The notes under the pieces were generated by a model, which was not told the origin of the DNA, searched no databases, and saw nothing but the letters and a program-made list of their open reading frames with translations. A program made the position numbers and the translations under genes. A DNA stretch of 47,554 bases, counting the filler, from Jimgerdemannia flammicorona (lineage: Eukaryota), in NCBI GenBank assembly GCA_003990765.1. It is 2 parts of 2 records of this genome, joined end to end, with 100 filler letters (N's around TTAATTAATTAA, not from the genome) between each part and the next. Parts side by side here need not be neighbours in the genome. Positions count along the whole stretch, not along the records: positions 1 to 23,728 come from RBNJ01001072.1; positions 23,829 to 47,554 come from RBNJ01001073.1. The stretch is one strand, 5' to 3'. Positions 5,273-43,665 of the stretch are shown here, piece after piece. Within the stretch, counting starts at the first letter, position 1, and each line of letters starts with the position of its first letter.

Positions 5273-5344
5273 TATCAAAGAAAATGTTTAAAGCTCATCT
5301 GGGACTGCCACCACTTTCTTGGCCCTTCCTCTAATGATCTCTTA

Positions 5345-9520: not shown

Positions 9521-11028
9521 TGTAACAAACCAAACATACTACCCAAATTATAACTTAGTCAGATGATATGAACAATTAGCATACTTAACCAAATGATGTG
9601 GGCTCCCAGTATAATATCCAGTATATTATAGTTACTCATGCTGTCACACTCATAATTAGCCAGATATGCCAGATAGGGTCTGTTTACCTGTATAGACTCT
9701 GTATACTATACAGACTCTATATACTCTATAGGTCCTATACACTATATAGACTCTGTATACCTGCTATAAGTAGCAGATCTATAGTTAGCCACATAGTAAC
9801 CAGATAGCAACCAACTTGTATAAATTACCCCAGAGATAAGAGTGAATAAACCTCAGTCCAAAATATAAACCAAAGAAGTCTCTAAAGATTGAGCATTGGT
9901 CCCCTTTTCACTCCAGTCTACTTTCCAATACAAAGCTTGAAGATTTTGCCACCAAGTTCAAGTGAAGAACTTCACCACCTTTTGAAGAGAAACCTGTCAC
10001 TTAAGAAATAAGCTGCACTATTGGTTTGCTTGTCAGATAAGCCTGAAGTTTGCCACTAAGTTCAAGAAAGAACTTTGCCACTATTTCTAAGTTATTCAAT
10101 GTATTCCCAGAAAGCTGCCTTGTTTAAGCCAGTTTCTGATGCAACTTCACAGTGAGCCATTTGTGCAAACAAAGCCAGTCTTTGATGCAACTTTGCCAAG
10201 AGACCCTTTCTAAGAAGCTGCCAGCAGTATTCTCAGTTATTCGAATTATTCACACCATCTGAGTTATTTCTCAGAAGCCCGCTAATTTAGGAGAATCTAC
10301 ATCATCTACCACTTCTAAGTTATCTGCATTCCCAGAATCTGTGCCATCATATTCCCAGAAGAGCCCACCAATTCAGGAAGAATCTGCACCATCTGAGTAG
10401 TATTCCTAGTTGAAACCGCCAATCTAGGAAGAATTCATGACATCTGAGTTATTCATTATTCTCAGTAAGCCTGAGAAGAACCTGCCACCAGTATAATTCC
10501 CAGTAAACCATCCCAGGAAGAACCCACACCATCCTCTATTCCCAGTGAGCCAAATCGAGTTATCTGCTAGAAATCACATACTTTTGGAAATCATCATGCT
10601 ATATGGAAATCATCACACAGAGATTGCCATCACCCAAGAAGGAAAACCACTAAATTGACAGACCATCACATATAAGGAACCCACACTACACAAAGATTGT
10701 TACACTATACAAGATCACTATACTCAGAAATCACATACTTTTGAAGATCATTACCCAAGAAGGAAACCACTCACACTACATATGAAATTCTACCAATTCC
10801 CAGTTGATCCAAGAAGGAAAGATACAAATTACCACTACACCCAGAGAACTATTCCAATAAGGAAATTGCTCACAGATATCTAGCTTTGACTATTATACCA
10901 CTAAATATCAAGGACCTCAGAAATCTTAGAACATTTTGTTGCTTTTTGACAAAGTAACTGAGGGCTCAAGCCAAACTACATCAACCCCCAACCTTGTGAT
11001 TTGCCTCCATTGAGCCAGGCATGTTACA
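9521..11028 (+). repeat. 5' LTR (~1.5 kb)
   Basis: TGTAACA...TGTTACA. TATAAA ~9818 and AATAAA ~9845. From ~9655 onward it is homologous to 18690-19901. Confidence 0.85.
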
Positions 11029-11030
11029 TT

Positions 11031-11048
11031 TGAGGGCTCAACTGGGAA
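11031..11048 (+). promoter_or_regulatory. Primer-binding site, tRNA-Pro-like (decayed)
   Basis: TGAGGGCTCAACTGGGAA, 2 nt after the LTR, versus the known tRNA-Pro PBS TGGGGGCTCGTCCGGGAT. Three of the five differences are G->A/C->T. Confidence 0.6.
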
Positions 11049-11063
11049 GATTTCAAAATCAAC

Positions 11064-12650
11064 ATGACTTTTCAGCTCACAGAACCCACAGTCAAACTGG
11101 ATACATTTGATACAACACCAATCTCTGCCACCACAGGAGAACTAGTTATTACTAGCATCTGGACAGAAAGAGAAGTAATCACCTCAAGACTCACCAACTA
11201 CCCAGCATCAGAAGGATTCCAACCAGAAGGCAGTATAGCCCAAAACTCTTGACCAGATCAACCAGACAATACAGGTGGCCCTGTTGGAGATTTTGAAGAA
11301 CTTGTACAAGAACTAGAAGATCTTATTACACAAGCCCGAGATCTTACAGCCAGATACCCCATACCAGTTCCATCAATCTCATCAATAGAACCTTTACCAC
11401 AAGCCCTTGCAGAGTTAGAAGTAGCTCCTACAAGAATACCTAGGCTCATTCCACTTCATCCAAGGTCCAGAACACCATCCTCAGGATACCCAGGCACCCC
11501 CATCTCTAGTGACAGCTCAGAAAGCGATTCAGAATCAGAATTCAGACCAGAACCAGAATCAGAAGAAAGTGATGATGAAATGGCCACCTCATAGCCAACC
11601 TTTGCAGAATACTCAGAGGAAGACCCCAGGGAATTCCTTGATGGAATTGAAGAAATTGCAGCCCTGAGGAATCTCTCAGATGAAAGAAAAATTGCCATCT
11701 ACAAGGCTCAGCTCAGAGAACCAGCTAGAGGAATTTTCCACCAAACAGCAAATGACCCAAATTCAGAACTGGCGAGACAGATACAAGCAGCAATGTCTTA
11801 TGAGCTAAAATATGTGGCCATGGTCCACTGGCTCATTGGAAAGTATGCAGGAAATGAAACCTGCCACAAGGCTCAAGAATCCATCATGGGGATGAAGATG
11901 AATCTTGGAGAATTACCCAGAGTCTTCTTCATAAGAATCCAGAAGAGAATGTATGCAGCTGGGTTCAATGCCACCAACCAGGACATCATAGGTCCAATGA
12001 CCTTCATGAACAGAATTCCCCCAAACATTGCTCAGCATGTCTGCACTCTAGTCATCAGAAGGTCTGAAGAGCAAGTAGATATAGCTCAAGGATTCTTCAA
12101 TATCAGACAAGAAACTACCTGGAGTGATTATGACAAGAAAGAAGATAAAGAAGACATCTTGGTCAAAGCCCTACAAGGACTCCTTCAAGAACAAGAAAGA
12201 TCTGAAGAAAGAAGGCCAGTCAAAGAAGGAAAGAAGAACAGAAGCAAAATCCAAGACCTCAGCTCTAAGTTGGACCGATTGGTTGGACAGATTGAAAAAC
12301 TCACCACATGTGAAAATCAGAGCTACCAAGACAACAGAGGATACCCACCACAGAGGAGCCAAGGTTATCCACCAAGAGATAACAGGAATTACCAGTAAGA
12401 AGAAAGAAGATACTCTGTCTGAGATAGAGCCCAAGTCCAATGCTTCTACTGTGGACAATTCAGATACTATGCCACTGAATGTGACAACAAAAGAAGTGAC
12501 TGAAGGGACTCAGAACTACCAAACCAAAGGAATGACACTCAGTATAAGAAGACTGAAGCCCATCCTGTTGAAGATTTCGAGGAAGTAAGTAACAGTGAAG
12601 ACTACAGTGACCTAGACTTATACCCTACCAAGATTACCACCTGAAAAACA
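11064..12650 (+). pseudogene. gag: Gypsy gag with CCHC zinc knuckle (disrupted)
   Basis: Capsid-like PTFAEYSEEDPREFLDGIEE. VQCFYCGQFRYYATEC at ~12435-12482 is CX2CX4HX4C with H->Y. Confidence 0.8.
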
Positions 12651-13079
12651 GTCTACCCAGCAGAGAAAAGGAAGAGACCTGTAGGAAGACCATCCAGGAA
12701 TATCAGCAGAAGAATCATCCAAGAGGTAGACAAAGAACATGAAGAGGAACAAGTAGAAATACCTCCCCAGACTCCTTCACCTTTTGTCTCTGAGACAAAT
12801 GAGCTGTCACCAGAAGATGAAGAAATGGAACAAGAAGAATGGAAACCTGCTGCCCCAAAGCCCAAGAAGAAGTACACCCCAAAGACCATGCCCAGAGACA
12901 TCTACAATGAAGCCTGGCAGAAGATTCAAGAAGTCAAGATGGAAGTCCCTCTCCTGCAGTTCCTGCAACTGACACCAGCTGGAGTCTGAAATAAATTGCT
13001 GAGAACAACCAGGTCTAGCACTGGCCAAGTTCTAATCCCACAGCAAGAACTAGTTCCCATCTCTGTCCAAGCAGCTGAA

Positions 13080-13450
13080 AGACATTTCAGCACCTACATA
13101 TATGGAGATATTGGAGGACAAAAGGCAAAGATCCTTATAGACACAGGAGCAGCTGCCTGTGTCATTGCCAAATGATTTCTGGACACCCTCCAATAGCCCA
13201 TTGATGGACCATCCAACCTCAGTATCATAGTAGCAGATGGAGCCCAAACTCAACCCCTTGGAGAAGTACAAAATATCACCATCTCTCTTAGACACATTCA
13301 GTTCTCCATCCTGAAAGCTATTGTCACTGAAGCTGTCACCTATGACATGATTCTTGGCACCAACTGGATGAAGGAAATGAATGAAGTTGTTGACATTGGT
13401 CAACAGGTACTCAAGTTTGACTATCAAGGCAAAAAGTATAGAGTTAAGGT
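13080..13450 (+). pseudogene. Retropepsin aspartic protease domain
   Basis: KILIDTGAAACVI (~13128-13167) and MILGTNWM. Confidence 0.9.
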
Positions 13451-14754
13451 GACCAGCTATGAGCAATCGAAGAAGAAGAAGAAGGTCATTATTCAGGAGG
13501 AATATATCAGTAGTGAAGAATCCACCACAGAAGAAGAGAAAGAATCTGAAGATGGAAATGATCCCAGACTCAATCCCTAAATTAATCTGGTGAATGACAG
13601 ACCAGAAGACAATGTGTGGGCTAAGAACACCATCCCTATTACCATTGGAGCCATTGTAGGAGAAATCAAAGGATGCCATACCTGCCTCAAGAGATAATAG
13701 TGTCCCAAGCATTCCTCCAAGATCATGGGAATAAGTAAATCGCCTGGCACAGCCTGCCCAGAGTGCAGAAGGAAGAAGAAGAAATACAGACATATTCCAG
13801 AAACACCTGCAGCCAAAGCTGTAGAAGTGCAAGAAATATGGAGACAAGAATTATCTGAAGAAGAAGAAGTTCCTGACCAAGAAGTTCTTGAACAAGAAGC
13901 ACCCAAAAAGGAAGAAGTCCCTGAACTCATTCCCTGGGATGACCCTTGCTGGACACCTCCTGAAGACAATGACCCTTGGAATATGGAAGAAGGACTCAGT
14001 ATAATCACCATTATCTCCAAGAAAGAAACTAACCAAGAAAAGGCTTTTTGGCTAGGAAGATGTCCACACCAAATGGTCTTCCACTCTCCCTGAAACTACT
14101 GCTATCAGTGCCATCTACTAGACCAACAGAAAAGACAGAGACCCCAGAGACCAGAACCTCCAAACATAGTTGCACAGTCAACTACCTTCCAAGAAGTTAC
14201 CACTAAGTTGCAAAGCTGATTCAGAGAACAAGACCTCTTCATCTGGACAGAAGTATACCCCTTGTCTACTCTTCTACCAACTTATGACCAAGATGGGTAC
14301 CAATTCCCAAGACAACAAGAGATCAACAACCAGGAACATTATTTCTGAGCAATGGAATATTGCAACCATAGAAGACACCCAGACTGCTGAGACTGCAGGC
14401 ATCAGAAGATCCATCTCAGTCATGATGTTGCAGTCCATACTTTGAAGAGAGGAGATAACCGAAACCATATCCAAAAAAGCCAGACCAAAAAGCCAGGAAG
14501 AAGGACCCTCAAGATCTACAATTTAGGAGAAGACATCCTAGCTCTCATCAGACATGCAACCCACCAAGAATGGATAGAAGATGCCACCAACTTCATAGAA
14601 ACCCTAGACCCTACAGGAAGAAGAGGAATCAACTATCTCTGAGATCCTTCTACTGGAGCCAGATGGCCACACCTCAACCTTAGAGCTTGGAGGCTCTTTG
14701 CTAGTAGAGCTTTAGCCTCAGGTCAGCCTGAACTCAGCAAGGATATTGCCCAGT

Positions 14755-15152
14755 ATGTCCTGCTACATCCCAAGGCCAAACCCCCAATCAAAGCACACCC
14801 AGAAGATATAGGATATGATCTTCACAGTCTAGAGGATGAATCCATCAAGCCTGGAAAATCATTCATGATCAGAACTGAACTAGTCATGCAGCTACCTCAA
14901 GGAACTTACATATAATTGATCTCAAGGTCTGGACTTGCCAGACAAGGAATAACCATAGAAGGAGGAACCATTGACCCAGGATATACAGGTGAAATCAAGG
15001 TCATCCTACACAATAGCAGCACAGAGTGGCACTGAATTATTAGAGGACAGAAGATTGCCCAAGCAGTCTTCATGAAGGTCAAGACCCCACAATTACAAGA
15101 AGTCTCCAAACTAACTAAAGGAACAAGACAAGCCAAAGGATTTGAGAGCTCA
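14755..15152 (+). pseudogene. dut: dUTPase domain within Gypsy pol (two in-frame stops)
   Basis: All five trimeric dUTPase motifs are in order: IGYDL, SRSGLA, GGTIDPGYTGEIKV, QKIAQ, TRQAKGFESS. Confidence 0.92.
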
Positions 15153-15559
15153 GAAAAGAAGGAAGTACATCTCCTTCAAGTCAGCCACCTCAAGAGAAAT
15201 ATCTCCCAGCAAGTGTACTACCAACCAGTCAAACTGCACAAGAATCTCATCCTGGAGCCTGGAGAGCAAAGCACCTTCAAAATCTTTGTACCACTGACCC
15301 CAGAAATCTCTTCTTTGAACCCAATGAAGATATCCCACACCTGGACATAGAAGGACACACATTTCCTGACAATATGAATCCAGTACACTCCTGAGCAACC
15401 AACCAAAGTTGGGCGATCATCATCTTGCCAAAAGGAACCATCATAGGACACCTGGTGCCTTTTCTCAGCCGAACTCATAGGGAAGTTTATGAACTAAACT
15501 TGTTGGGAAATGGCAAAAGGTCTCAGAAGAAAGAAAAGGCCCCTCTGTGACCCAAGAGA

Positions 15560-16976
15560 CAGTGAAGCCTTCTACTAACATTGGAGAAGAATTGATATCT
15601 CAACAACAGCAACAACTAGTAGAACTCCTCAACAAATATCAAGATATCTTCACTACTGATTATGGAAATCTGCCATATAACCTATCATATCACTATAGCA
15701 TAAATACAGAAAATGCAACACCCATCTGGCAGAAACCCTATAGAATACCCCATCACTTAAAAACATTCAAAAAGGAGCACATTCAAGAACTCTTAGACAA
15801 TGGAGTCATCTGACCATCTACCAGCCCTTGGGCCAGCCCTATACTTATTGTGGCAAAGAAAGGAGGATGGAGACTCTGTGTAGATTACAGGAAATTCAAT
15901 TTAGTCACTGAAAAGGATGCCTATCCTTTGCCCAGAATTGATGACCTTTTGGATCAGTTATAAGATGCCAGATACTTCAGCAGTATGGACCTTTTTGCAG
16001 GATTCCATAAGATCTCTATGAACTCCAAGGACATTCAAAAGACAGTCTTTCTTGCTCTAGGAAAACTGTTCAAATATCTCTGAATACCCTTTGGACTTTG
16101 CAATACACCCCCCACCTTTCAGAGGATGATGAATTCAGTTTATGTCCCCTTGATCCACCACTGCCTGATTGTATACATGGATGATTCCAATGTCTATTCA
16201 GCAAATTTTGAAGAACACCTACACTACCTAGAGGAATTCTTCAAGCTCACCTGAAAAAACCACTTAAGACTGAATGCAAAGAAATGTTACTTTGGGAAAC
16301 AGAAACTTGAATTTCTTGGATTCATAGTTTCAAAAGAAGGAACCCATGTAGACCCAAAGAAAACTGAAAAGATCAACATTGGCCAGTATCCAAGACCTCA
16401 AAGAAAACATTATCATTCCTGATACTGGTATCCTACTACAGAAGGTTTATCAAGGACTTCACCCAAATTGCTGCCCTAATTCAGATCCTTCTCAAGAAAG
16501 GAGTGTCATTTAAATAGACAGAATCACAAGAAACAGCCTTCAAAGAACTCAAGAACTGCATGACTACAGCACCAATCCTTGTGTGCCCCAATCTACAGAA
16601 GCCATTCATCTTGTATACAGATGCTTCCAAAGATGGCCTAGGAGCAGTTCTAGCCCAAGAAGGACCTGACCAACAACACTATGGGATAGCTTATGCAAGC
16701 CGAGCTACCAATCAGCAGCAGATGAACTATGGCAGCATCAAACTAGAATGTCTTGCAGTCATATGGGTGGTCACCCTGTTTAAGTATTACCTTATTGGAA
16801 AAAGGTTCACCCTGATCACAGACCATGCAGTCCTCAAATGGCTATTCAACTACAAGGAACTCACCAGAATCCTAGCCTGCTGGATCCTTATTCTTCAGAA
16901 TTACAAAATCACCATCATCCACAAAGTAGGGAAAGCCAACAACAATGTTGATGTACTTTTCTGCCAGCCCCAATGA
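15560..16976 (+). pseudogene. pol: Gypsy reverse transcriptase + RNase H
   Basis: [51 protein letters not shown] (~16173), FILYTDASKDGLGAVLAQ, FTLITDHAVLKWL. Confidence 0.95.
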
Positions 16977-16989
16977 ATCAGAAGAAGGG

Positions 16990-18053
16990 TGTCCCAAGAA
17001 ACTATACTCTAAAGGAAGCTCCTCAGACCATCAAGGCACAAGAAGATCTCATCTGAAAAGAACATCAGAAAGCCCACCAGAGACAGGCAAATATAGAAGA
17101 GAAGCTGCAAACAATACACCAACATTGGCTCAACCTCAGAACACAAGTCCAGGACATACTCAAGAAATGTGACACCTGCCAGAAGTACCAAGGAAGAAGG
17201 AATTATCAAGCACCACTGTAACCAATTACACCACCAGACAACATCTTTCAGAGATGGGGAGTAGATATAATCAGACCCCTACCAGTTACACCAAAAAGGA
17301 ACAAATACATCCTTATATTTGTAGAATATCTGATAAAGTGGTCCAAGGCTTTTCCAATGGAAATTGCAGATGTCTTAACCATTGTAGACTTTCTCCATAG
17401 ACTCACACTCAGATATGGACCCCCAGAAGAACTCATCTCTGACCAAGGCATAGAATTCATCAATAACATAATCACAAGTTATGCCTGAATTCATAAGATC
17501 CACCTCAAATGGACTACATCATACCACCCTCAGACCAATGGCATAATAGAAAGAATGAACCAGATCATCAAGAAAGGACTTGCCTGAGGTAATCCTACAT
17601 ATCAATTGGGACCTCTGCTTACCTGAGATCCTATGAGAAATCCAGAACACCCCTGCTGCCTCCACCAAACAAAAGCCATTCGAAATGATGTTTGCCAAGA
17701 AAACCAGAACTGCTGACCATGAGAATCTCGGAGACCTCCTTAAGAAGGCAGAACAGGTATGTAATTAAGCCCAAGGTCAGATTATCAAATCCCAAGAAAG
17801 ATAAAAAAAGTATTATAATCAGAAACAGAAGGATCAGGAGATTAAGATTGGAGATCAAGTACTAGTTTGGAGAAGCATGATTGAAACAAATTTTTCTGCC
17901 AAATTAAAACCCAAATGGGAAGGACCTTATCTTGTATACAATATCAGAGGAACTAGTATCTATTTAAGAAGTATGGATGGATGAACCCTCAGGACACCAG
18001 TATATATCAACTGCCTCAAGATATACCTCTCTCATCATGAACCAGACAATTGA
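16990..18053 (+). pseudogene. Gypsy integrase (HHCC remnant, DDE core, GPY/F)
   Basis: CDTCQK, FQRWGVDII, LISDQGIEF, YHPQTNGIIERMNQ, KLKPKWEGPYLV. Confidence 0.92.
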
Positions 18054-18585
18054 CCAGTACCTCCAGACCCTTGTTCTGAGTTTATTCCAATCACTTCCAG
18101 TTTGCCTTCCACAATTCCAATAAGCCAATGGAAACCCCCTTTGGTAAATCCAGACCCATCAAGAGAACTTCACTTTGGCCAGACATTTACTACAAGTACA
18201 TCAGCTACAGGTCTACTATGCAATTGGAGAACAGTTACAGAACCTTCCAGTAGCAGACCTGACCTACATCAGAAACTCCACTGGCCTCATCTGGAAAAAT
18301 ACCACTGCTGCAGACAGATTGTACACAATCTACAAATGAAATGTCCCAGCCTTGACACAAGCACAATTCCTTTTGAATGATATTCATAATATGAATCCTG
18401 CTACTTACTGGAGCATCATCAATAATATTGAAATCCTGTTTCCAGAAGAAGAAGAAGAACCTAGTGGAGTGACTCTGACCCCAATGAAGATATTGGTTCA
18501 AATATTGATGCTGAAGATGCTTATGCATATTGGAATGATGACTAAAGGATTGTCTGAGGGCAGACCATCCTTTAGTAGAGACTGA
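18037..18585 (+). pseudogene. Extra ORF3 between integrase and 3' LTR, unknown function
   Basis: A single frame of ~182 codons from ATG 18037 to TGA abutting the LTR. Its three internal stops (TAA, TAA, TGA) all revert by C->T. Similar to the ORF at 24150-24794. Confidence 0.7.
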
Positions 18586-19901
18586 TGTGATGAGCAACAG
18601 AATTGTACTACTGAAATCATAAATTAGCCACATACTATATCTAGTACACTAAGTAACCAAGACTGCTTTACTATGCCAACCTGTATATTTAGCCAGAGAT
18701 ATCAGAAACAGTGTGTTTACCTATACCCTCAAGGTATACTATACCCTTAAGAAACACTTGCCATAGTTAGCAATCTATAGTTAGCAACATAGTAACCCAT
18801 AGCAATCACAACTGTATAAATTACCCCAGAGATAAGAGTGAATAAACCTCAGTCCAAATTGAAGTACAAACCAAAGAAGCCTCTAAAGGTTGAGCATTGG
18901 TCCCCTTATTCTCACTCCAGTCTACTTTCTGATACAAAGCTGATTTTGCCACCAAGTTTGAGTAAAGAACTTTGCCACCTTTGGAATTATTGGTATGCTT
19001 GCCAGACTAAGCCTGAAGAATCCGAGTTTGCTGCCCAAGTTTGAGGAAGAACTTCACTACCATTTGAGTAATCCACCACTTAAGAAATAAGCTGCCATTT
19101 TCAAGTTATCTGCATTCCCAGAGAGCCTAAGAGAAAGCCACCTTGCTCAAGCCAGTTTCTGATGCAACTTTGCAGTAAATCTGTTTGTTCAAATGAAGCC
19201 AGTCTTTGATACAACTTTGCTAAGAGACTCTTTCCCAAAAGCCACCCATTATATTTCCCAGTTGAAGCCGCCATTTTCAAGAAGTCTGCCAATTTAAAAG
19301 AATCTACAATATCTGAGTTATCTAAATTATCTGCACCACCCAAGTTATTATTTCCAGAAGCCTGCCAATTCAGGAAGAATCTGCAACATCCAAGTTATCT
19401 GAGTTATCCATGACATCTGAGTTATTCATTTGTTCCTAGTAAAGAATCCACCATCAGTATAATTCTCAGTAAGCTGCCATTTCAGAAGAATCCATATCCC
19501 AAATTGAGTTATCTGCCAAATTACATAAGGAGAACTACCAAATTACCAGATTGTCATGTATAAGAAACCCATCATGCTATACAAGATCATCACCCAGAAT
19601 TTGCATAAGGAACCCACTGTGCCATACAGAGACCATTGTGCTACATATGAAATTCTACCAATTTCCAGTTGACCTAAGAAGGAAATCTATTTACACACAA
19701 ATTGCTGCTACATCTAAAGAACTATCTCAATAAGGAAATTGCTTGCAGATATCCAGCTTTGACTATTATACCACTAAACACCAAGGACCTCAAGAATCTT
19801 AGAACATTTTGTTGCTTTTTGACAAAGTAACTGGGGGCTCAAGTCAAACTACACCAACCCCCAACCTTGTAATTTGCCTCCATTGAGCCAGATATGTTAC
19901 A
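18586..19901 (+). repeat. 3' LTR (~1.3 kb)
   Basis: Starts TGTGATG after a GTCT-GAGGGC-AGAC hairpin and weak purine tract. Ends ...CATTGAGCCAGATATGTTACA like the 5' LTR. Confidence 0.8.
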
Positions 19902-19902
19902 A

Positions 19903-22890
19903 TAGTGCTCAATTTGAATCAAATCCAGATTTGATTTGTCACATAATGGTTTGACTCAAATCTCAAATCTAAAATAATCTGAATTAACTTAGATTAATCT
20001 GAATCACTTCATCTAAATTACTCAATCTAAACTACTTAATTCAAATTACTCAATCTGAACTACTTAATCTGAACTACTCAATCCAAACCACTCAATCCAA
20101 ATTACTCAATCTAAATCACTCAATCCAAGCCACTCAATCCAAATCACTCAATCCAAATCATTCAATCTGAATTCTTTAATCTGAATCATCTAATTTGAAT
20201 TATCTATATGACTTACAGTGATAGCCAAAAGTAAATTAATATTTAGTTTTTATAAATATTTAATTATATTATAATTCTAATATAAAATATTTTAAATTAG
20301 AATTTAACCATTAATAGACTAGTGTCTGAGTTTTGAATAGTATATTTTTATTTTATTTGGATAATTATGAATATTAATATAACTATTTTAAGTTAAATTA
20401 TTCATTGATATACTTTTGAATCTTTTTGGTATATATATAAACCTTTTTTTTTTTTTTTTAGCATATATATTTACATACTGTTAATATTCAAATTTTCATC
20501 ATTATTGTTTCAGACATTCTTTACAACTCTATGTAATATTAATTTAGTTCTATTGTTCTAATTTTCAGATTAGACTATAAATGTTTTTCTCAATAACTTA
20601 GTGAGTTTTCAGTTGATTTTGATGATCTTGATGTCTTTGAAAAATCATTCTTGAGAGCTTTTCAAAGATCCCAAGAATGTTAAATCAGAAGAAAATTCAC
20701 CAAGTTGTCAAGGAAATCATCTAACTCACTAATTCTGAAATGAATGTTTTTCTCAAAATCTCAGTGAATTTTCATTCAATTTTAATATTTATGATATCAT
20801 TGTGAAGCTCTCTATAATAGCTTTCCAATGGTATCAAGATCATCAAAATTAGATAAAATCTCACTAGTTGTTAAGGAAAACATTTGATAGTCTAATTGGT
20901 AAGATAAGTATCAGTATAGTAAAAAGAACTTTCAAAAGACAGATAAAGATAAGTATCAATATGGTAAAAAGAACTCTCAAAAGACAGATATATATATGAA
21001 AGTAAAAAAAACCTCAAGGCACAATACAAATTTCATTGAACTATCCATAATGGCCATAAATGAATATAGCACAACCCCAAAACTGAACTATATACTAGAA
21101 CTCTAAAATTCAATTGCTCAATAACTCAGTGAGATTTCATCTGATTTTCATGATCTTGGTGTCATTGGAAAGCTTTTATAGAGAGCTTCATAATGATATC
21201 ATAAACATTAAAATTGAGTGAAAATTCACTGAGATTTTGAGGGAAATGTTTATTTCAAAATTGGTGAGTTAGATATTTTCCTTGACAACTTGGTGAATTT
21301 TCTTCTGATTTTAACACTCTTGGTATCTTTGGAAAGCTCTCGAGAACGACTTTCCAATGACACCAAGATCATCAAAATCAACTGAAAATTCGTTAAGTTA
21401 TTGAGGCAAACATTTATGGTCTAATTTGGAAATTAGAACAATAGAACTAAATTGATATCATTCAAAAACACTGTAGAGTTGTAAAGAATGTCTGAAACAA
21501 TAATGGATATTGATAGTATGTAAAATGTATGTACTAAAAAAAACAAAAAAGATCAAAAGTATATCAATGGATAATTAACTTAAAATAGTTCTATTAATAT
21601 CTATAATTATCTAAATAAAATAAAACATATACTATTAAAAAGCTCAGTCACTAGTCTATTAATGGTTAATTCTGATTTAAAATGTTTTATATTAGAATTG
21701 TAATATAATTAAATATTAATAGAAACTAAACATTATTATAGTTTTGGCTATTACTGTATATACTAGATATAATTCATTATATATAATATATATATATGTA
21801 AACATATATATATAATTACATATATTCAAATATACAAACACATATATTAATAGATCAGTCTTCAATAGTTTATAGTACTGATGATGCTTCTAGTCAATAG
21901 TTCCATACTTTTTACATAATCCTCATTCTGAAATCTGGTAATATTGTGTTAAGACTGAAGATAATATTATTTGTAATTATTACAGGTAAAAAATTTAAAA
22001 AAAGAAGATATATTTATAATACAACTGATACTTTTATTAGATATATACATAATATTATTTCTACTAATCTCTTATACTATATAGCCAGAAGTTTAAAATA
22101 CTTAGTAGTTCAACTTCAAACATATACTAACATATAAGACAAACACTCTGACAAAATCAAAAAGAATATAGAAATAAATAAAATTGATATCCAAGCTGTG
22201 GTGGGGTACATTTATCTGATTGCTCAACTATTTCTATATCAATAATCCTATTTAATCAAAAAATATTTAGCCATATTCTTCAAAATTGACTCATTTACTA
22301 GATTATATATACAGACCAACTATTCACAATCATCAAGAGCAATTAATTGTATATTACAAGTATGATTTATATCTGCCAAGTTCCAATACTATTCACAAAG
22401 ATATTCTGGAAGTCTATAGGAAGGAGCATAATAATCTTCACTAAACACTTCAGATAAAATAAATAAATGAGAACAATACTGTGACTATTGTTAGCTAAAT
22501 TTTATATATATATAAAAAGAGCTCACCAATTTAATCTTACTTTCAATAAACAGAATTCAGCAGATAGAATTTTATTTATAATTGATCAATATATGGATAT
22601 CCTCTAATGTAATTTCATTTCTGGACATTACCAGTCATTGAATTAATCTCAATTGGTAACTTAAATCTCTTACTCTTGACTTTATCAAACTTGCTAATTT
22701 TTATTCTGGAGAAAATATCATATATATTTTTATTAGTTGTATTATAAAGAGAGAGACATTTTATTGAAGTTATATAGGTCATATATTTCATGCATTACAG
22801 ATGAATGATATAAAATTGATAGAATGGTTTAATTACATATTGACATATCAAGTTGCTATCCCAATACTCCTACTCAATGAGATATATATC
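19903..22890 (+). mobile_element. Heavily C->T-mutated copy of the hAT element seen at 1-793 (terminus, subterminal array, BED exon, transposase remnant), interrupted by a foldback element; right boundary approximate
   Basis: TAGTGCTC...AATTTGAATCAAATCCAGATTTGATTTGTCACA aligns with the reverse complement of 720-793. 21898-21990 aligns without gaps to the reverse complement of 121-213. Confidence 0.85.
20216..21756. mobile_element. Non-autonomous foldback/large MITE with ~650-bp terminal inverted repeats, Tc1/mariner-type ends
   Basis: TA|CAGTGATAGCCAAAA ... TTTTGGCTATTACTG|TA. 20216-~20870 is the reverse complement of ~21115-21756. Short non-coding spacer; TA TSD. Confidence 0.88.

Positions 22891-22892
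<2 letters not shown>

Positions 22893-22956
<64 letters not shown>
22893..22956 (+). repeat. Poly(A) run (~64 nt) at the hAT/Copia junction
   Basis: Homopolymer; no flanking TSD identified. Confidence 0.9.
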
Positions 22957-22958
<2 letters not shown>

Positions 22959-23728
22959 GTATTAAAATATAGACTAGAAATATACAAACTAACTAAGTAA
23001 ATTGATTATTAATCATAAAAACTACATATAAACTAAAGAAAAACTACTTATACCTACTTAGAGAATAAGAAATCTAGTGAAAATACAGGATATAGATCAA
23101 AGATATAGTAGAAATATTCATAATATCCACTCATAAAAATGAGAAATATGGTAAGAAAGCAAGATATAAATATAGATAATGCAAATATAGTAAGGGAGGC
23201 TTTTGAGGATCTGAAAAATATCCAGTAATTATTTGCTAGACTTTACTAAAACACTGGTGTAGAGAGTACATTATCTCATAATATTCAAAAAGAGTTTTAT
23301 TTCTTTAATATATTACTCAAACTTTGCCTTTAAAAGGGCTTTCATAAGTAAATCAGTGATTATGTACTCTGTGGGAATGTATTCCAAGTATATAGTACTA
23401 TTTTCTATACATTCGTATATAAAATAATATTGTATATTGATATGTTTTATTTTACTGTGATGTATTGGGTTCTTGGTAAATGTTATTCAATTGATTGTCT
23501 TGCTTAATTAGTGTAGAGTTCTTTTGAGTAAAGTCAAGCTCTTTTAATAGTTCATAGAGCCATATGTTTTTTTTGTTGCCATTTATAATGCTTGGTACTC
23601 TATCTATATTGATGATGTTGCTATGGAACACTGCTTATATATTTATCATAAGATAACTTCTTTGTCATTTTTGCCAATGTAGAGAAGGTACCTAGTTTGT
23701 AGATTGATAGTTATTGAGATCAGGGGGG
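22957..23728 (-). mobile_element. Ty1/Copia 3' end (RNase H remnant + probable 3' LTR), heavily mutated
   Basis: Minus-strand KQCSIATSS..EYQAL, WLYELLKEL, DNQ, KNPIHHSKIKHINIQYYFIYE and LEYIPTEYIITDLLMKAL are decayed Copia RNase H motifs (HHxRTKHIDIRYHF, ADxLTK). Confidence 0.85.
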
Positions 23729-23828
23729 NNNNNNNNNNNNNNNNNNNNNNNNNNNNNNNNNNNNNNNNNNNNTTAATTAATTAANNNNNNNNNNNNNNNN
23801 NNNNNNNNNNNNNNNNNNNNNNNNNNNN
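23729..23828. other. Assembly gap with artificial six-frame stop linker
   Basis: N44-TTAATTAATTAA-N44 (100 nt). Confidence 0.97.
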
Positions 23829-25276
23829 CATATGAGATGAGCAATGATGACCAACTGTGAGTCATTGTGACCACAGTACAAGCATCCTGAAGAATATAAA
23901 AGAAGGATCAAGGAACTGCAGTAGCAGCAACCAACAAGAACCACCAATCCCAAAATAGCTCAAAGACTTACCACAAATGAAATACCTGCTGCCCACCAAA
24001 CCTCAAGGTCAAGGAATCACCAAGATATCTTGGTCGAGAAAAGGATGTTCCAAGACATCAGAAGAGCCATAGGGACCTACTCAAGAAGGACTCTTAGTGT
24101 TAACCTGGGTACTGCAGACTCTTATTACTTCATTCTCTACTACTGTAAAATGGAAACAAGGATCACTATTGCTACCAAATGCCTTCAAATATAGCAGGAG
24201 TATAAAATAGGAAATCTCCTCTATCAGGAGTTCCCACAGGCCAGCACTCAAGAGCTATAAGATGCCACTCCTATGGATATATGCAAAACAAGGATAGCTA
24301 AGAAGATCCATCAGATCTTCAGGCATACACCATGGTCGATCCCCAACTTGAAGTATGTCAGAGTCTCAGACTTCAGAGATCTATCATCCCACCATATCAA
24401 TGCACTAGAAGCCAGGGTGGCTACAGAAATCCAGTCCACTATCACTCTCAACAGTGAAGAAGTAGAAGACTTCTGGCACTCTATTCTCTAGGACAACTCA
24501 GACCAATTTCTGTAAGGATTGATCTCAGTATTCCAAGGCCCAAGCATCCAGGTTAGACCTCCCCAAGACCTCACATTTATTCCCTATTTTGTGGAAGAGA
24601 ACCTCATAGACTGGAGAGCTCCAGATCTTGTTCCCAATTTCCCTACTGAACATGATGATGTCATCGGTAATGACATCATCCTACGTGACATATGCGAAAT
24701 GTGTGACCTACACGATGAGTTCATGGATCTCATCTCCTTCAGTGATGATGATGATGAGGATGAAGCTCCCATAGTCCTGAACTTTCTGCTCTAAGTTCTT
24801 TGTTATACTAAATAATACCAGTACTAGTATTCTCATGTAACACTGGATAATGTCAGCACTAGTATTCTAAGGTGATGCAAAATTGTTCCAGCAATGGCAT
24901 TTTGATGTTACACTAAATAATGCCAGTATCCTGAACCTGTACAACCATCAGTGCTAGCCCTGGAACTTAGTAGTTTCAGTTATTGGAATTTATATTTAGC
25001 TTTATATCTTAGCAACCATTGAATTATATTTTGTATAAATACTCCTCTTATTTCCTCTGAAATAAAGTCAGTTAAGTTTCGGTTTCACTTATATACACTT
25101 CCTTGTAAGCAATCTAAGAGATAACAAGATAGTTAAATATAAGAAGTTTGAGGACTATAAGACCTTGGGAAGGCACTCTAATAAGAACTTGCTTATAACA
25201 AACTTGAGTTAGTCTAAGAGATACACCTTGAAGAGAATCTGACATATTTGAAGAACTCAGTGACCACTACGTAACA
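23829..25276 (+). mobile_element. 3' end of a second LTR retrotransposon (probably Gypsy): accessory ORF and LTR ending ...CGTAACA
   Basis: Its ORF resembles ORF3 of the 9.5-19.9 kb element. TGTATAAAT...AATAAA at ~25032-25066 has the same spacing as in the first LTRs. Candidate LTR starts TGTTA at 24098, 24801 or 24907. Confidence 0.65.
24150..24794 (+). pseudogene. Accessory ORF3-like frame (~214 codons, internal stops), acidic C-terminus
   Basis: ATG 24150 is in frame with track ORFs 24273-24491 and 24519-24794. Motifs YKIGNLL...RIAKKIHQIFR...VSDFRDL. Confidence 0.6.
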
Positions 25277-26455
25277 ATATATATCTATTTTCTTAGAAAA
25301 GTATGGTAACAAATTGGACTTGCATATCTATATTTATTCTTATAAGTTTGAAGTATTAGTCTAACTAAAAAGTCCAGATATGTATCAGTAAATAGTTTTC
25401 TATAGTAACTATATATTAAAAATATTAAGCTTAAGTAGCTTAAAACTAATAAGTATAATTATAAAGTAAGCTACTATGGCTATACTTTTGTTTTCTAATA
25501 TTCTAGTTATAGTTATAGATTTCAGATCTAATATATTATTGTAATAATTATTCCTTTTAGATCAATCTATAGTTCTGAATCTATATCTTCTATTATAGAG
25601 AGATCTGAATAATTAGCTAGTTCTTCAGAGTTCATTTTGGATTTATATAACTAGTTGTAACTGATTTCTAAATTTATATAAGGTTTCTTAATAAAGCAAG
25701 ATATAACTTTATCACTACTATCAAATATAACAGTTCTAATTTCTTTAAAAAAAAGTAGCTTAAATCTGAAAGATTTTAGTAGGTCTAAAGTATACTTATA
25801 GATTTAAGTAGTTTTAAAGAGTTTCTAAAGAAAATATTCTGAGCTTTATTCAAGTAAAGAAAGAGGATATTTATATAAAATCTAAAAGAAAGACCAGGAA
25901 GAATTTTAGAAATAAAAAGAAAAGCCAAGAAAGTAGTTCTTAATAAAGATGATTAATAAGATTTTACAATATACTAAGATAAGATACTTAATATTAAGAA
26001 AAGACAAGAATATTCTGATAAAGTCTTAGTGCCAAGAAAGAATTTCTAAGTATTCAGGAGATGCTGAAACATTGTGGAATAGACAAGAAAAGATAAAAAA
26101 AGACTAGAGAAAAAATATGAAAATATACTATAAATAAGAAATTATTATAATGTATTTATTATAATAATAATTTATGTTATAAATATTTAGAATTAACATA
26201 TTAAGGAACTTTTGAAAATAGTATAATCAGATTACTATCAGTTCTTATATTATATATTTAAGATAAAATTATCAAAAAAATATATATTAATTTTAATAAG
26301 TTTATTATTTGATATATATTTCAATTTATATCATAAATTATATTATTTATGAGACTTAAAATCTGTTAATGTATTATAATAGCAATAAAATATTATATTG
26401 TGATAATATATACAAATACAAAATATTTTAAAATACCATTATTTTCTACTGCTAA
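25277..26455. repeat. Extremely AT/TpA-rich relic of an unidentifiable repeat
   Basis: Essentially CpG-free and TpA-rich, with an abrupt return of CpG at ~26458. Confidence 0.5.
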
Positions 26456-26796
26456 TACCGACATACATATCGCAGATGGTCACATTACCAGTTCCCCGAG
26501 TTTGCCGACAAATAGAGTATTCAGACGATTTAAAGAGAGAGAGAATTCGATGACACAACAGAGCAAAAGCGAACAAATATCAACATTAGCAGGCGATCAA
26601 GTTGCATGTGAAGAATGGTGCGTGGATCTGATGCAGCCGACAGCCAGCCAAGCTTCCAAGCAGCCAAGGGATCGAGCGACATTTGGTGTGCTTGCATGTA
26701 ATACGGAATCGGATCCATGAAAAAATGGGAGATGATAAACTACGCCCTTTCAAATGTCGTATATACCGACCCTGAAATGATCAGACCAATTGAATC

Positions 26797-26859
26797 TTTA
26801 TCGCAATTGTGGGATTTATCGCAATTGTGGGATTTATCGCAATTGTGGGATTTATCGCA
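26797..26859. repeat. Perfect 18-bp tandem repeat x3.5 (TTTATCGCAATTGTGGGA)
   Basis: Direct reading. Confidence 0.95.
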
Positions 26860-27121
26860 TGACCAAGATTTAAAATGCACGCAGCATACATGCACCGTGT
26901 GCGTGTATTTAAATCTATGAACCTGCGTGCAAGCGATGGCGAATCAAACGCATCTGATTATCAATTCCACCGGTTATGCTCGCCTCTAACTTGACGTCGT
27001 CGAACATGAATATGCACCCTGATGCCATTGTAGACGGTGAACACCATCATGTAGCCAAATCATTATAAAATATTTGTAATGCCATCAAAGTTCGGTTTAT
27101 AAATATACAATCGACCTAACG

Positions 27122-28534
27122 TCACTTTAAAAAGGTGAAGAACTCCTTAAGTGCACGAATCCCCGCTCTCCTTCGAGTCCGCTTCGGGGTCCCTATCGTA
27201 GTAGATAAGACCGGCTTGTCTTCTCCAGATGAATCTACATACTTCGGCACCGATTCCTCTCTCTGCCTTTTCCACGTGTTTCGTCGCACGTACTGAAACC
27301 CATTCAATTTGATCCATCTCTCCACAGCCAGCGCCAGATGGTCGGGAACTTCTATCTGCTCGAGATTTGGGCATTCACAAATGACCCAGACCACAAAAGT
27401 TTCGGCTAGATTGTAGCACCCGGAAAGCGACAGCGTCCGTAGCTCTGGCCAACCCCTGTGGACATACGAATTCAAATTGGTGATCCTCGTCAAGCACTGG
27501 CATTCTATGAAATCGATATGCTCGAGCTTGCGACCGTGCGCAAGCAAGGTCTCAACCAGTGTTCCGTCATGGACCCAGCTGATTCGCACCAAGCGGAGAC
27601 GTTTCAATTCCGTACAGCTGGACAGGAGGGAGTCCACGGCGCCGACGGTGACGGCCGTATAGTGTACCGCCCCCCCGTTGACGAGAGTGAAGGAGTTGAG
27701 CAGCGTGCACGAGGCCGCCAACGCATGGATGGTGCGGTCGAAGCAAGGTGATCTTCCGTGCATGTAGCAAAACTCGCGCAAGTTGGACCACGATGGCAGG
27801 ACCGTCGCCAGGCCGTTTTCGGGGTCATGGATGCGGATCATGTTCACGTCACGAATGCGCGAGCAACGGCGCAGGGCGTCTTGAGTCGCGTGGGTGATGG
27901 CATAATTTGTCAGGGTGAGGGATTCGAGAGTCGGACTGAGGATGGTTAGGAGGGTGTCAATGTGGGTGTGGTGCGCCGGGTGACTGCCGCCTCCGTTGAA
28001 GCTGAAGCGTCTGATTGGCGGCCAGATGGGTTGCAGGCGATTGAAGAGGTTGTTGAGGTGATCGAGGGGACAGGCACGAGCGGTTGCGAGATATGTGATG
28101 TCAATTTCGAGGTCCGTGAGGTTGCGTGGGCGGAGTTTAAAGAACGTTTCGAGGGACTCAGTCATGGATTCGACCCGGTTGCGACTCATGCAGCGGACGT
28201 CGATTTTCACTTGTTCGATGAGTCCAGGGGGATCAAAGCCATTGTGCCGAAACTCGACGAGTAGATTTATGTACCGTTTCATTTCAGCGACGTCGAAACG
28301 GTTATCGTAGACGAGCGTTCGGAACAAGTCAAGTTGGATCCTGTTGTAAAGGAAAGGGCTGGCTTCTTCGTACCAGCTTCTGCAAACCATCGAGCTGGCG
28401 ATAAGATCCCAGGGCGCTTCCGAAAACGTGGTGGCATGGTGTGAGGGAACTAGGTATAAAAACACCAAGTGTAGAATGTCCGGGACCAAAAGTGGTGTAC
28501 GGTAGCGGGGATTTCTGAGTATCCTAGTGGGCAT
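27122..28534 (-). CDS. F-box / leucine-rich repeat (RNI-like) protein, 470 aa, intronless
   Basis: N-terminal LVPDILHLVFLYL...SSMVCRSWYEEA F-box-like motif. Cys-containing LRRs (CTELKRLRL, LRTLSLSGCYNL, CPNLEQIEV). Confidence 0.85.
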   Translation of the reverse strand: MPTRILRNPRYRTPLLVPDILHLVFLYLVPSHHATTFSEAPWDLIASSMVCRSWYEEASPFLYNRIQLDLFRTLVYDNRFDVAEMKRYINLLVEFRHNGFDPPGLIEQVKIDVRCMSRNRVESMTESLETFFKLRPRNLTDLEIDITYLATARACPLDHLNNLFNRLQPIWPPIRRFSFNGGGSHPAHHTHIDTLLTILSPTLESLTLTNYAITHATQDALRRCSRIRDVNMIRIHDPENGLATVLPSWSNLREFCYMHGRSPCFDRTIHALAASCTLLNSFTLVNGGAVHYTAVTVGAVDSLLSSCTELKRLRLVRISWVHDGTLVETLLAHGRKLEHIDFIECQCLTRITNLNSYVHRGWPELRTLSLSGCYNLAETFVVWVICECPNLEQIEVPDHLALAVERWIKLNGFQYVRRNTWKRQREESVPKYVDSSGEDKPVLSTTIGTPKRTRRRAGIRALKEFFTFLK

Positions 28535-29288
28535 GTCGACGTATGGTAATAATGGAGTGTTAACACCAATTTTCTATTGAAGGACGCTTGCAAGAGAAGT
28601 CGATCTCAGATGATTGGAACGGTAGGAAGTCAATATTTATTCCGAGTCATCAAACAGGTGGTAAACTCCGGAGACGGCGAAACATGTAACAAACAAAGAG
28701 TCAGCATCTCACCTATTGTCGTGCGTACAACCGCTTTTGTACGAATGCACCTATAGCCGGACTGCCTTTCCGAGGCGAGGCATGTTGAGCCATTCCCCAA
28801 AATCATTGTCACCAGGGTATTATTCAGCGTTGTTTGCTGACGTATGGTATGAAAAACAATGTCAACACTCGTCAGCTCATTCTCGGCACACAGTATTATT
28901 AAACAAAGAAGAGTGTTGCAAAAAAGCGGGCATGTTTTTGTTGAAGCGTAGCAGACTATCGCCAACGCCTTTAAACAATTGCCGCAACAAAGGACGGAAA
29001 GGACAAATAGAACGATTTGACCAGCAAGGATTTGAGTTCTCGGCGGTCATGATGGGTGGGTTATATTTTAGGGAGGACGCAGATTTGTTTGAAGCACATT
29101 GATTAGAAACGAGATTAATTTGTGAATTTCATCCAACCACCGGTACAAAACCTGATTGCACCCCTGAATGAAAGAGCTGGGAAAAGATCGGATTAGTCCA
29201 ACATGCGAGTGTACTTATTGTTTTTTCGACGAATAAAAACATTACACGCTCCGGAGAGTGAGACTAGTGCCTCGGCTTCACGGATACG

Positions 29289-29323
<35 letters not shown>

Positions 29324-30281
29324 AATTGGTTGACTCTCAGGACGCAATCCAATCAACGTAGCTTGAACATGTGTCTTCCCAGCGGCAGTGAGGAAGAGGA
29401 AAACAAAAAGCCATTCTTTTAGCAGCAATAATAACCTTTTAGTTTTCCCACTCTCAAGTCGGCAAATGGACACTGCAACTCCCAAGTTAGGATTTGTACC
29501 TAGCCCCTCATATCAAGGCGCACGGTCTGTGATAATCGTTTAATAATAAATTCGGACGAATTTAGAAAGTCCATCGATGCATGCGTGAGACCCTCCACAT
29601 GGTGCTGTACTACGATATCCTTGTCTGAGTCCGTGGCACCAGAATCATTGCGCCTACGATCAGCAGGGCGAGCTGATCGACGCCACGATTCCTAAATGTA
29701 ATTAAGTAATAGTCGTCCGAGAATACACGTGTTCGCCACTGAAGCAATAAGCTTTCCTGCCAGGCGCACTTTCCGCGTCCGACTCAAGAATCTGACGGTC
29801 GATGGAGAAGACTGACATGCTGTGTGCACAATGAAATTCGAGTCGCCGTATCCTAAGATTACCCATGTTGGGTAATACGCGCCATCAAAGCGATACAATT
29901 ATGGACTAGTGGATGGAAGTTGCGTGTGAAAATCTTTCCAGATAAATCGGTACCGACGTCGGGACTACATGAGGTTCGGTGTGTTGTCTTACTATACGTA
30001 ACTGAGGTAGCGTTTTGAAATCTACAGCGACGTTGACAGCTATGAGGAAATGGTAAATGTTCGTTTGCTGACCGTTAAAAAGATATTTTTTTGAGGTAGA
30101 TGCACTTTGCCAAAGAAGATGGGCGTAGCGACGGTTGTGACAAATCGTGGGGCAAGAAAAATTTCGCGACGTGGGGATTTGGACGGCCATATTTATTGAG
30201 ATAATTACATAAATAAATAAATTGTGAATAAATTTCCCTCCACACAAGGTCGTATATTTCAAGCTACGTGTTATTCTTGTT

Positions 30282-31316
30282 TCATTTAGACACGCGACCC
30301 GACACCCGCTGGGTAATCCAAGACCACACGCCGTTCAACCAAGACGCCCCCTCGGATTCGGACGGCAGCTGGGACGCCTGGTCAGCGTCATCCGTCCATC
30401 TGGAATACTGAGCCTGGTACAGGGGCGGCCACGCAGGGAGCACCGAATATAGGGTGTCGACTTTGTAGTAGGCGGCGTCGCGGATGCGCTGGACGGCCGG
30501 GTCATAGTTGTGCGGGTTCTGCGTGACGGCGCGTGAGCAGTGGGCGGCGATTGTAGCGAGGATGATGTCGGACTGGATCTCTGGACAGTTCTGGAGGCGG
30601 AGACTGCAAAGCGTGCGGCCGTAGGTGCGAAGGAAGGCGGCGAATTCGGCGACGGGGATGTGGTGGACGTGGACGAGGCGGAGGTCGGTGAGCTTGGTGA
30701 GAGAAAACATGCGGGAAAAGTTGTAGGGGATATCTTGTTTGGCGTTTGGGGAGGTGGCATTAGTGATGTAGAGGGTGCGGAGGGAGGGTGGCAGATGTCG
30801 GAGGACGATGTCGCCCTCCTGGCCGGAGTTGGCGAAGCTGGCGATGATGAGGTGGCGCAGATTGCGGGTTAGGTGAGGGAAGACGGTGGCCAGTAGATGG
30901 CTGGTGTCGAGGTCTGTGCTCCCGAAGCGGAAAATCAGGTGAATCTTGCGGAGCTGTTCGGGGGAGAGCAGGTTGAGGAGGGAGGCTGCCGCCTGGGCCC
31001 ATCCCGGCTCGGATGGCGGGAGTGTTAAAGAGATGGTCGTGACATAAGCGATGCTCTGGGTTATGCGGCAGGCAAAATCGGGACGCGAGTTGGTCATAGA
31101 CCGGCGCAAACTCTCGATGGTGTGCTTTTCGAGCATGGTGTCGAAGCGTAGGGTGGACCAGACCAAGGGGAGGGCGGCGGCGCGCCAGTCTTTTGAGACG
31201 AGCGAGCAGTAAAACAAGGTAGAGCGGGGTCGACAGTGGAAGAGGAGGTCATCAGGGTGGGGGAAGTAGGTGAAGATGTTGGTCAGGGTTTCGTGGGGAA
31301 GTTGTGGGGAAGGCAT
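30282..31316 (-). CDS. F-box / LRR protein, 344 aa, intronless
   Basis: LPHETLTNIFTYF...CSLVSKDWRAAALPLVW F-box. LRRs LRHLII, LRTLYI, LTDLRL, LCSLRLQNC. Confidence 0.85.
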   Translation of the reverse strand: MPSPQLPHETLTNIFTYFPHPDDLLFHCRPRSTLFYCSLVSKDWRAAALPLVWSTLRFDTMLEKHTIESLRRSMTNSRPDFACRITQSIAYVTTISLTLPPSEPGWAQAAASLLNLLSPEQLRKIHLIFRFGSTDLDTSHLLATVFPHLTRNLRHLIIASFANSGQEGDIVLRHLPPSLRTLYITNATSPNAKQDIPYNFSRMFSLTKLTDLRLVHVHHIPVAEFAAFLRTYGRTLCSLRLQNCPEIQSDIILATIAAHCSRAVTQNPHNYDPAVQRIRDAAYYKVDTLYSVLPAWPPLYQAQYSRWTDDADQASQLPSESEGASWLNGVWSWITQRVSGRVSK

Positions 31317-38300: not shown

Positions 38301-38407
38301 AGCATGAAGGTGTGGGTGGAGGGCCCTCTAGGGGGATTGGGTAGTGGGAGGGAGTGCTGTATTTATATTTGATAGACTGGTAATAAATGGCAAAGTCCAA
38401 GTAACTA

Positions 38408-38482: not shown

Positions 38483-38486
<4 letters not shown>

Positions 38487-43603: not shown

Positions 43604-43665
43604 TCACTAATGATCATGAATTATGCGTCCTAGTTACCATCAGCCCCATCAGCCACCACGTCGTC

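Follow-up and report, generated by a model that had tools for sequence, protein, structure and literature searches.

To our knowledge, long terminal repeat (LTR) retrotransposons rarely carry extra genes other than env, and for hardly any of those in fungi is a role known. Plant Ty3/Gypsy elements of the Tat, Ogre and similar lineages carry small lineage-specific open reading frames (ORFs) of unknown function flanking gag-pol. For fungal Gypsy elements, Novikova et al. (2010, PMC2864245) mention in a figure legend an 'add. ORF' whose function is unknown, and the same paper describes dUTPase-bearing Gypsy elements of basidiomycetes such as PosPlaTy3-5. In bdelloid rotifers, LTR retrotransposons bear non-env ORF3s that are lineage-specific in type, can be common to unrelated elements and are typically expressed from spliced messages (Rodriguez, Kenefick and Arkhipova 2017, PMC5408684); both papers report a dUTPase located between protease (PR) and reverse transcriptase (RT). 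Here we analyzed a 47,554-nt stretch of DNA from Jimgerdemannia flammicorona (GenBank assembly GCA_003990765.1; hereafter the window), which contains a decayed dUTPase-bearing Ty3/Gypsy element, element A, with an accessory gene, ORF3-A, directly following pol, and a second decayed frame, ORF-B, on another contig. An initial annotation had assigned the two ORFs to one conserved family shared by two different LTR elements. This is the striking part of its claim and is unproven, and we read ORF3-A and ORF-B instead as probable members of two separate protein families, A and B.

ORF3-A lies between pol and the 3' LTR, as do the env genes of errantiviruses and retroviruses and the env-like ORFs of Athila. 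ORF3-A and ORF-B are unlike env in having no signal peptide or transmembrane (TM) helix, a length of 170-270 aa and an acidic, cytosolic character. They recall the additional ORFs of Tat and Ogre elements in being small and lineage-specific, in different hosts. Element A has the same layout as PosPlaTy3-5-type elements, with the dUTPase between PR and RT (PMC2864245), and ORF3-A resembles the rotifer ORF3s in lying downstream of pol in a dUTPase-bearing Gypsy-like element (PMC5408684). The rotifer ORF3s are recognizable enzymes (GDSL lipases and DEDDy exonucleases), TM proteins or coiled-coil proteins (PMC5408684), whereas ORF3-A and ORF-B match no family and belong to another host group. The 'add. 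ORF' of PMC2864245 can be compared with ORF3-A by mention only, as the relevant passages give neither a sequence nor a family for it. In the passages concerned, the literature on additional ORFs and ORF3s in fungal LTR elements contains no description of the A or B family, although the supplementary table of PMC2864245, which lies outside those passages, may bear on this. Since additional ORFs and non-env ORF3s have already been described, the kind of gene is known, and A and B are new members of it without an assigned family. ORF3-A itself is a well-defined and testable fungal retrotransposon accessory gene, with a conserved frame, a fixed start and stop, a tight junction with the pol stop, no match to a known fold, and relatives among soil sequences. 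It offers a usable entry point for asking how genes of this sort serve an element whose host genome methylates its repeats and mutates them.

The two ORFs lie on either side of a contig joint, so that window DNA spanning the linker is not contiguous. Position 24150, the start originally given for ORF-B, is 321 nt into the second contig, and the start determined here, 23982, is 153 nt past the linker. The initial annotation is corrected in that the window joins two contigs, that no second element is visible, and that the decay of the repeats is a loss of CpG rather than classical repeat-induced point mutation (RIP). The features of the two ORFs, with expect values (E) for matches to the family profiles, are as follows.

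18037-18483, plus strand: ORF3-A main frame, with ATG at 18037 and internal stops at codons 29, 37 and 101 (A-family profile positions 1-143, E 5e-72)
18459-18545, plus strand: acidic C-terminal tail of ORF3-A, in another frame after a frameshift, with stop at 18543-18545 (profile positions 139-166, E 9.4e-06)
23729-23828, no strand: contig-join linker (N44, TTAATTAATTAA, N44), read from the sequence
23982-24794, plus strand: ORF-B, whole length, 271 codons, start now ATA, with four internal stops in 24150-24794 (B-family profile positions 1-273, E 5e-133)

Both translations of the initial annotation were reproduced, and in each stretch the chosen frame has the fewest stops of all six: four in 18037-18585, compared with 6-14 in the other five frames, and five in 24150-24794, compared with 8-24. 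Intact relatives elsewhere (15 for A at E<=1 and eight for B) confirm that both frames are protein-coding. The proposal that the ORF at 18037 is a non-env ORF3 of an LTR element was also borne out: on the sense strand, ORF3-A spans the interval from the pol stop (18051-18053) to the 3' LTR (~18604) of a Gypsy element, and a relative in a 1569-nt metagenome locus, L001, likewise lies directly after pol. As its ATG is at 18037, ORF3-A shares its first 17 nt with the end of pol. The frame as first drawn, 18037-18585, runs to within ~60 nt of the 3' LTR. A frameshift near 18459-18483 in the window copy places its last ~100 nt (18484-18585) out of frame; the true C-terminus is encoded by 18459-18542 in the other frame and ends at the stop at 18543-18545 rather than at 18585.

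The carrier of ORF3-A was delimited by LTR comparison and by a Pfam scan of the inter-LTR DNA, translated with X at stops.

9640-11041, plus strand: 5' LTR of element A, start approximate (piecewise match to 18685-19912, 68-86% identity)
13104-13373, plus strand: aspartic protease domain of pol (Pfam gag-asp_proteas, E 7.3e-10)
14784-15152, plus strand: dUTPase domain between PR and RT (Pfam dUTPase, E 1.8e-25)
15856-16329, plus strand: reverse transcriptase (Pfam RVT_1, E 2.5e-26)
16518-16904, plus strand: RNase H (Pfam RT_RNaseH, E 9.8e-33)
17036-17593, plus strand: zinc-binding and core domains of integrase (Integrase_H2C2 at E 0.0042 and rve at E 5.2e-06 in Pfam, neither of which reaches its curated cut-off in this decayed copy)
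17601-18053, plus strand: integrase C-terminal tail, to the pol stop at 18051-18053 (frame translation; aligns with the pol end of L001)
18546-18603, plus strand: spacer with a purine-rich tract before the 3' LTR, a possible polypurine tract judged from the sequence
18604-19912, plus strand: 3' LTR of element A, its start placed by the TG... match with the 5' LTR (LTR comparison)

The LTRs, ~1.3-1.4 kb long, occupy roughly 9640-11041 and 18604-19912. The segments 10776-11041 and 19641-19912 share 86% identity, and the more decayed segments 9759-10506 and 18756-19472 share 68%. The Pfam order of PR, dUTPase, RT, RNase H and integrase is that of Ty3/Gypsy elements, with an added dUTPase separating PR from RT, and element A is a decayed dUTPase-bearing Ty3/Gypsy (Metaviridae) LTR retrotransposon. 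L001 carries an intact counterpart of the integrase zinc-binding and core domains. The integrase tail gives weak SH3_Tf2-1 and MLVIN_C matches and is presumably of the type known as the GPY/F module. No chromodomain, the mark of chromoviruses, was detected in the forward frames of 10801-20003 (E<=0.01) or in the integrase tail (E<=10). No matching 4-6 nt target-site duplication was found at the inferred ends of the element, and a primer-binding site was not identified. Arrays of a 14-nt tandem repeat occur at 19968-20205, starting ~55 nt beyond the 3' LTR, and at 387-716.

A search with the window ORF3-A returned five proteins at E<=0.01 among 61 candidates, and a search with the A-family profile, covering proteins of 55-321 aa, returned 15 at E<=1 among 2024 candidates. 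The full-length, intact members (P0010, P0011, P0017 and P0018; 169-183 aa) share the end ...IDAEDAY.(Y/H)W(N/D)DD, and of the 13 alignment rows extending over the ORF3-A start, 11 keep the start Met, as does L001, the only locus returned by a metagenome scan with the A profile. In L001, the ORF3 relative comes after the integrase core and tail and is interrupted by three stops of its own, and the pol TGA and ORF3 ATG overlap as ATGA. The window lacks 4 nt just before ATGA relative to L001, and its pol consequently extends 14 nt further. A comparison of the window with L001 over 354 nt of ORF3 shows 28, 23 and 61 differences at codon positions 1, 2 and 3 (~117 sites each), and over the pol tail 19, 7 and 38 (111 sites each); the excess at third positions indicates purifying selection in the ORF3-A frame. 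Opposite the three internal stops, the relatives have E/Q, K/R/Q and R/W/Q; the stops are compatible with transitions (C>T or G>A) only if the ancestor had Q, R or W at these positions. Judged by this conserved frame, ORF3-A is a genuine post-pol accessory gene (ORF3) of a Gypsy element.

ORF-B begins upstream of the Met at 24150 from which it had been drawn. In the alignment, three of the eight B relatives, P0005, P0014 and P0015, start ~56 residues before that Met, at the position of the ATA at 23982 in the window. A search with the window ORF-B returned six proteins at E<=0.01 among 35 candidates, and a B-profile search of 1.84 billion cluster representatives returned five, including the divergent P0014, P0015 and P0016 (29-47% identity). 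The eight relatives, all free-standing ORFs of 138-342 aa, are 29-80% identical to P0005, and those of full length (P0003, P0004, P0005 and P0015) have 215-342 aa; a metagenome scan for the B family returned no relative. Where the window copy has its four internal stops, the relatives have W or Q, and the ancestral ATG is now ATA, so that all of these lesions fit transition-type G>A or C>T changes. The initial description of both ORFs as single frames broken only by stops revertible by such changes fits ORF-B, with its W/Q sites; ORF3-A also carries a frameshift, and its stops agree with the description for only some of the possible ancestral codons. By its alignment with these relatives, ORF-B is a decayed copy of a real conserved protein family.

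Both families were uncharacterized in the databases searched, as had been supposed, with no Pfam, PDB or fold match. No member of either family reached a Pfam cut-off, the matches being single and sub-threshold; ATG5_HBR appeared below threshold in three of nine B members (best E 0.051). PDB sequence profiles gave nothing for B and, for A, only two coiled-coil rows at chance level (E 0.11-0.38). Foldseek against the PDB gave no match at E<=0.001 for either model, the models being too weak for such a comparison to be meaningful. Best scores in the ESM Atlas were 0.86-0.87, below the 0.9 level of a lead, and IMG/VR scans with both family profiles returned no relative. Among 10 relatives, none has a TM-like segment (highest 19-residue Kyte-Doolittle mean 0.48-1.36) or the combination of a signal peptide and at least one TM helix expected of env; their isoelectric points (pI) are 4.1-5.9, and 6-18 of the last 40 residues are acidic. 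The initial description of acidic C-termini and non-env proteins is upheld by these values. In the AlphaFold models, A is predicted to be all helix to residue 134, followed by a low-confidence tail, and B to have a helical core, in which confidence is locally better at residues 100-160, then a short hairpin and finally an acidic tail that is disordered. The N-terminus of ORF-B, ahead of the predicted helical core and acidic tail, is basic.

We assign a probability of roughly 0.6 to the following reading, taken as a whole. ORF3-A and ORF-B are decayed copies of two real, lineage-specific families, lying in CpG-depleted repeat DNA of a probable soil fungus, and no common origin of the two has been established. 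Proteins of both families are soluble and acidic with a largely helical structure, and their conserved acidic tails bear aromatic residues; ORF-B is repeat-borne, and its carrier element is cut off by the contig end. ORF3-A (~170 aa) fills the whole space from the pol stop to the polypurine tract and 3' LTR, its start codon coinciding with the pol stop or lying no more than 17 nt from it, and might be made by re-initiation after termination of pol or, alternatively, from an RNA that is spliced or subgenomic. ORF-B (~270 aa) would represent a separate family of similar style. Both proteins could act as adaptors that bind element proteins, or themselves, through the helical core and recruit a basic host partner through the acidic, aromatic tail. 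Nothing in these results speaks for the nucleic-acid-binding or anti-silencing role that the initial annotation had suggested. At a mean predicted local distance difference test (pLDDT) score of 50-53, the fold and the adaptor role are what we infer from such models and no more.

Several observations weigh against this reading. The AlphaFold models have low confidence (mean pLDDT 53 for A and 50 for B), and the carrier of ORF-B is unseen, so its retrotransposon origin is not assured: no LTR partner, LTR pair or polypurine tract was seen around it within the window. Further points of this kind come from the comparison of A with B, where the strongest competing explanation is that the two diverged within a single accessory ORF3 family, placed after pol in two Gypsy lineages and sharing a helical core with the segment Y-x-I-G ... 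A-[AK]-[KR]-[IL]-[YH]-x-[LIV]-[FY]-[KR]. We consider this somewhat less probable than an even chance.

The register of the by-eye alignment in the initial annotation was recovered as the top match by BLASTP, by HMMER in both directions and by hhalign with the deeper A profile, at a significance that is weak. BLASTP of the two window copies gave 16/56 identities (E 0.004, single comparison), and the annotated frame pair was the best of 36 pairs (Smith-Waterman score 46, compared with at most 36), a score reached by 5 of 500 shuffles. The A profile matched B proteins at per-comparison E of 9e-5 to 0.048 (10/10), and the B profile matched A proteins at 2e-4 to 0.13 (16/16); these HMMER scores were reached by 0, 0, 2 and 2, 3, 5 of 1000 shuffles. 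Pairwise E in hhalign lay between 0.006 and 0.02: deepening the A profile moved the signal to the annotated register, over 60 columns, and lowered E from 0.019-0.021 to 0.0063. Only 3 of 200 column-shuffled B alignments reached the score, and reversed alignments scored 17.6-17.8 compared with 26.3. When sub-profiles of separate subfamilies were compared, the top hit lay in this register for three of four pairs. In a six-frame search of the window, the best non-self match of each profile was the other ORF in its own frame. The two low-confidence models both show a parallel run of six predicted helices, and both families have acidic tails and similar pI. A TGA at 23978-23980, which closes another frame one base before the ORF-B start at 23982, recalls the stop-start junction of ORF3-A, without being proof.

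Against a shared family stands the profile-profile comparison on which the initial annotation had staked it: the hhalign probability for A versus B is 2.3-6%, which is not significant, and reaches 6% with the deeper A profile. The sub-profile E-values are 0.0043, 0.087, 0.31 and 0.31, and the pair formed by the window's own subfamilies has no match in the annotated register. None of the five matches of the B profile among the 1.84 billion cluster representatives comes from the A family, and none of the 15 A-profile proteins at E<=1 comes from the B family. The window-wide cross matches are weak (E 0.21 and 0.72) and fall at non-collinear places. Simple shuffles are lenient for helical proteins rich in Q, L and E, and the pair had been picked because its members looked alike. 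At the DNA level, 23829-25100, compared with the window by blastn and tblastx, matched nothing but itself, in agreement with the initial report of no such similarity.

A motif, D-Q-x-L-Q-x-L..S.F-Q..P, is invariant in both families (18037-18093 and 24480-24560). Its D-Q-x-L-Q-x-L..F-Q part is N-terminal in A and lies behind the core in B, which speaks against a shared family, and the displacement may reflect either chance or a moved helix. As the two A-B similarities are not collinear, at least one of them is due to chance. Since the register was reproduced by three programs and stands above most shuffles, a distant kinship is kept at a little under even odds; any common origin would be confined to a helical core of ~55-100 residues, and these comparisons weakly suggest a single shared family.

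That ORF-B is instead a host gene, or the gene of a non-LTR or DNA transposon beside AT-rich DNA, is unlikely, and bears on what surrounds it. No pol domain was found by Pfam in six frames of 20001-27204. No integrase signal was found in the 321 nt upstream of 24150, a search of low power, given that the positive control on the tail of element A itself reached only E 0.15. With no pol or LTR around ORF-B, a second LTR element is not visible in the window. Downstream of ORF-B lies the following block.

24795-26450, no strand: CpG-poor, AT-rich DNA that may be an LTR (2 CpG between 24795 and 26458)

The block has no Pfam match, and CpG is dense beyond 26458. The DNA that follows ORF-B is not significantly similar to the start of the element A LTR (187 of 1000 shuffles reach the score), none of five B representatives is fused to a pol domain, and P0003, P0014, P0015 and P0016, scanned against Pfam, match no family, all of which would suit a gene outside an LTR element. 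Such an origin is opposed by the CpG observed/expected ratio of ORF-B, which at 0.14 is transposon-like and differs from the 0.99-1.11 of neighboring genes, by the death of the copy through transition-type stops, by its position at a contig break, as is usual for repeats, and by the occurrence of B relatives only on contigs of 778-1625 nt.

Less probable still is a far-reaching form of kinship, in which A and B are two branches of one undescribed accessory superfamily, located directly after pol in several Gypsy lineages of basidiomycete-like soil fungi. Its members would share the pol stop/ORF3 start junction, a six-helix core, a D-Q-x-L-Q helix displaced between the branches and an acidic tail whose aromatic anchors help to bring in a host factor, for example to counter methylation-linked silencing of the element.

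Lastly, it is highly improbable that 18037-18585 is a C-terminal extension of integrase or pol, or a chance-open non-coding leader to the 3' LTR, for although the window pol frame is open for 105 codons past 18053 and stops are sparse in each of the three forward frames here, where the DNA is A-rich and T-poor, the relatives keep the ORF3-A frame rather than the pol frame, with a common Met and stop, the pol of L001 stops exactly at the ORF3 ATG, the differences in the ORF3 frame are in excess at third positions, and none of the 15 relatives exceeds 183 aa (within the 55-321 aa covered, fused forms not being sought).

The reading of two decayed families is set in a background of strong repeat decay. 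The CpG observed/expected ratio is 0.04 in the internal region of element A and 0.00-0.14 in the repeat parts overall, compared with 0.99-1.11 in gene-bearing parts (27101-33000 and 38500-47554, and the neighboring F-box-like and arrestin-like ORF regions). In classical RIP, repeats show TpA/ApT above ~0.89 together with (CpA+TpG)/(ApC+GpT) below ~1.03. Across element A and ORF-B these indices are 0.65-0.66 and 1.55-1.59 (0.66 and 1.59 in the element A internal region; 0.66 and 1.55 in ORF-B), and are thus not RIP-like in either repeat. The premise of a genome that hypermutates its repeats, taken as RIP, therefore gives way to a pattern of CpG loss. With such indices and almost no CpG, the decay is read as methylation-linked, which suggests CpG-directed loss fitting deamination at methylated CpG.

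In a run of soil-metagenome DNA, 9% of sampled words were present, and 16000-19950 matched 1057 short-contig records 80-99% alike to element A; these contigs contained no joints bearing on splicing. Among the 40 best-supported differences between the window and the soil contigs, 29 have T or A in the window where the contigs have C or G, while across all listed differences the opposite directions come out nearly even (T>C 86, A>G 52, C>T 101, G>A 61). Judging from these contigs, the element A family, or relatives of its host, is present in soil.

Other parts of the window carry further repeats and genes. Long open frames at 27125-28573 (minus strand), 30285-31361 (minus) and 45270-45974 (plus), with F-box-like/leucine-rich repeat (LRR) and arrestin-N matches mostly below Pfam cut-offs, are probably host genes and agree with a fungal, basidiomycete-like host. 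The blocks 1001-7000 and 33001-38300 have extreme and opposite GC skew (~-0.45 and ~+0.45) at a CpG observed/expected ratio of 0.00-0.08, and may be opposite-strand copies of another repeat; the first has three long open frames (5348-5956 minus, 5924-6523 plus and 7296-7931 plus) with no Pfam match. Poly(A) runs of ~65-70 nt occur at 22892-22956 and 38414-38485, and a 134-nt direct repeat of 78% identity (36443-36576 and 38236-38369) precedes two A-rich runs 1.8 kb apart; these features are possibly the tails of non-LTR or short interspersed nuclear element (SINE)-like elements.

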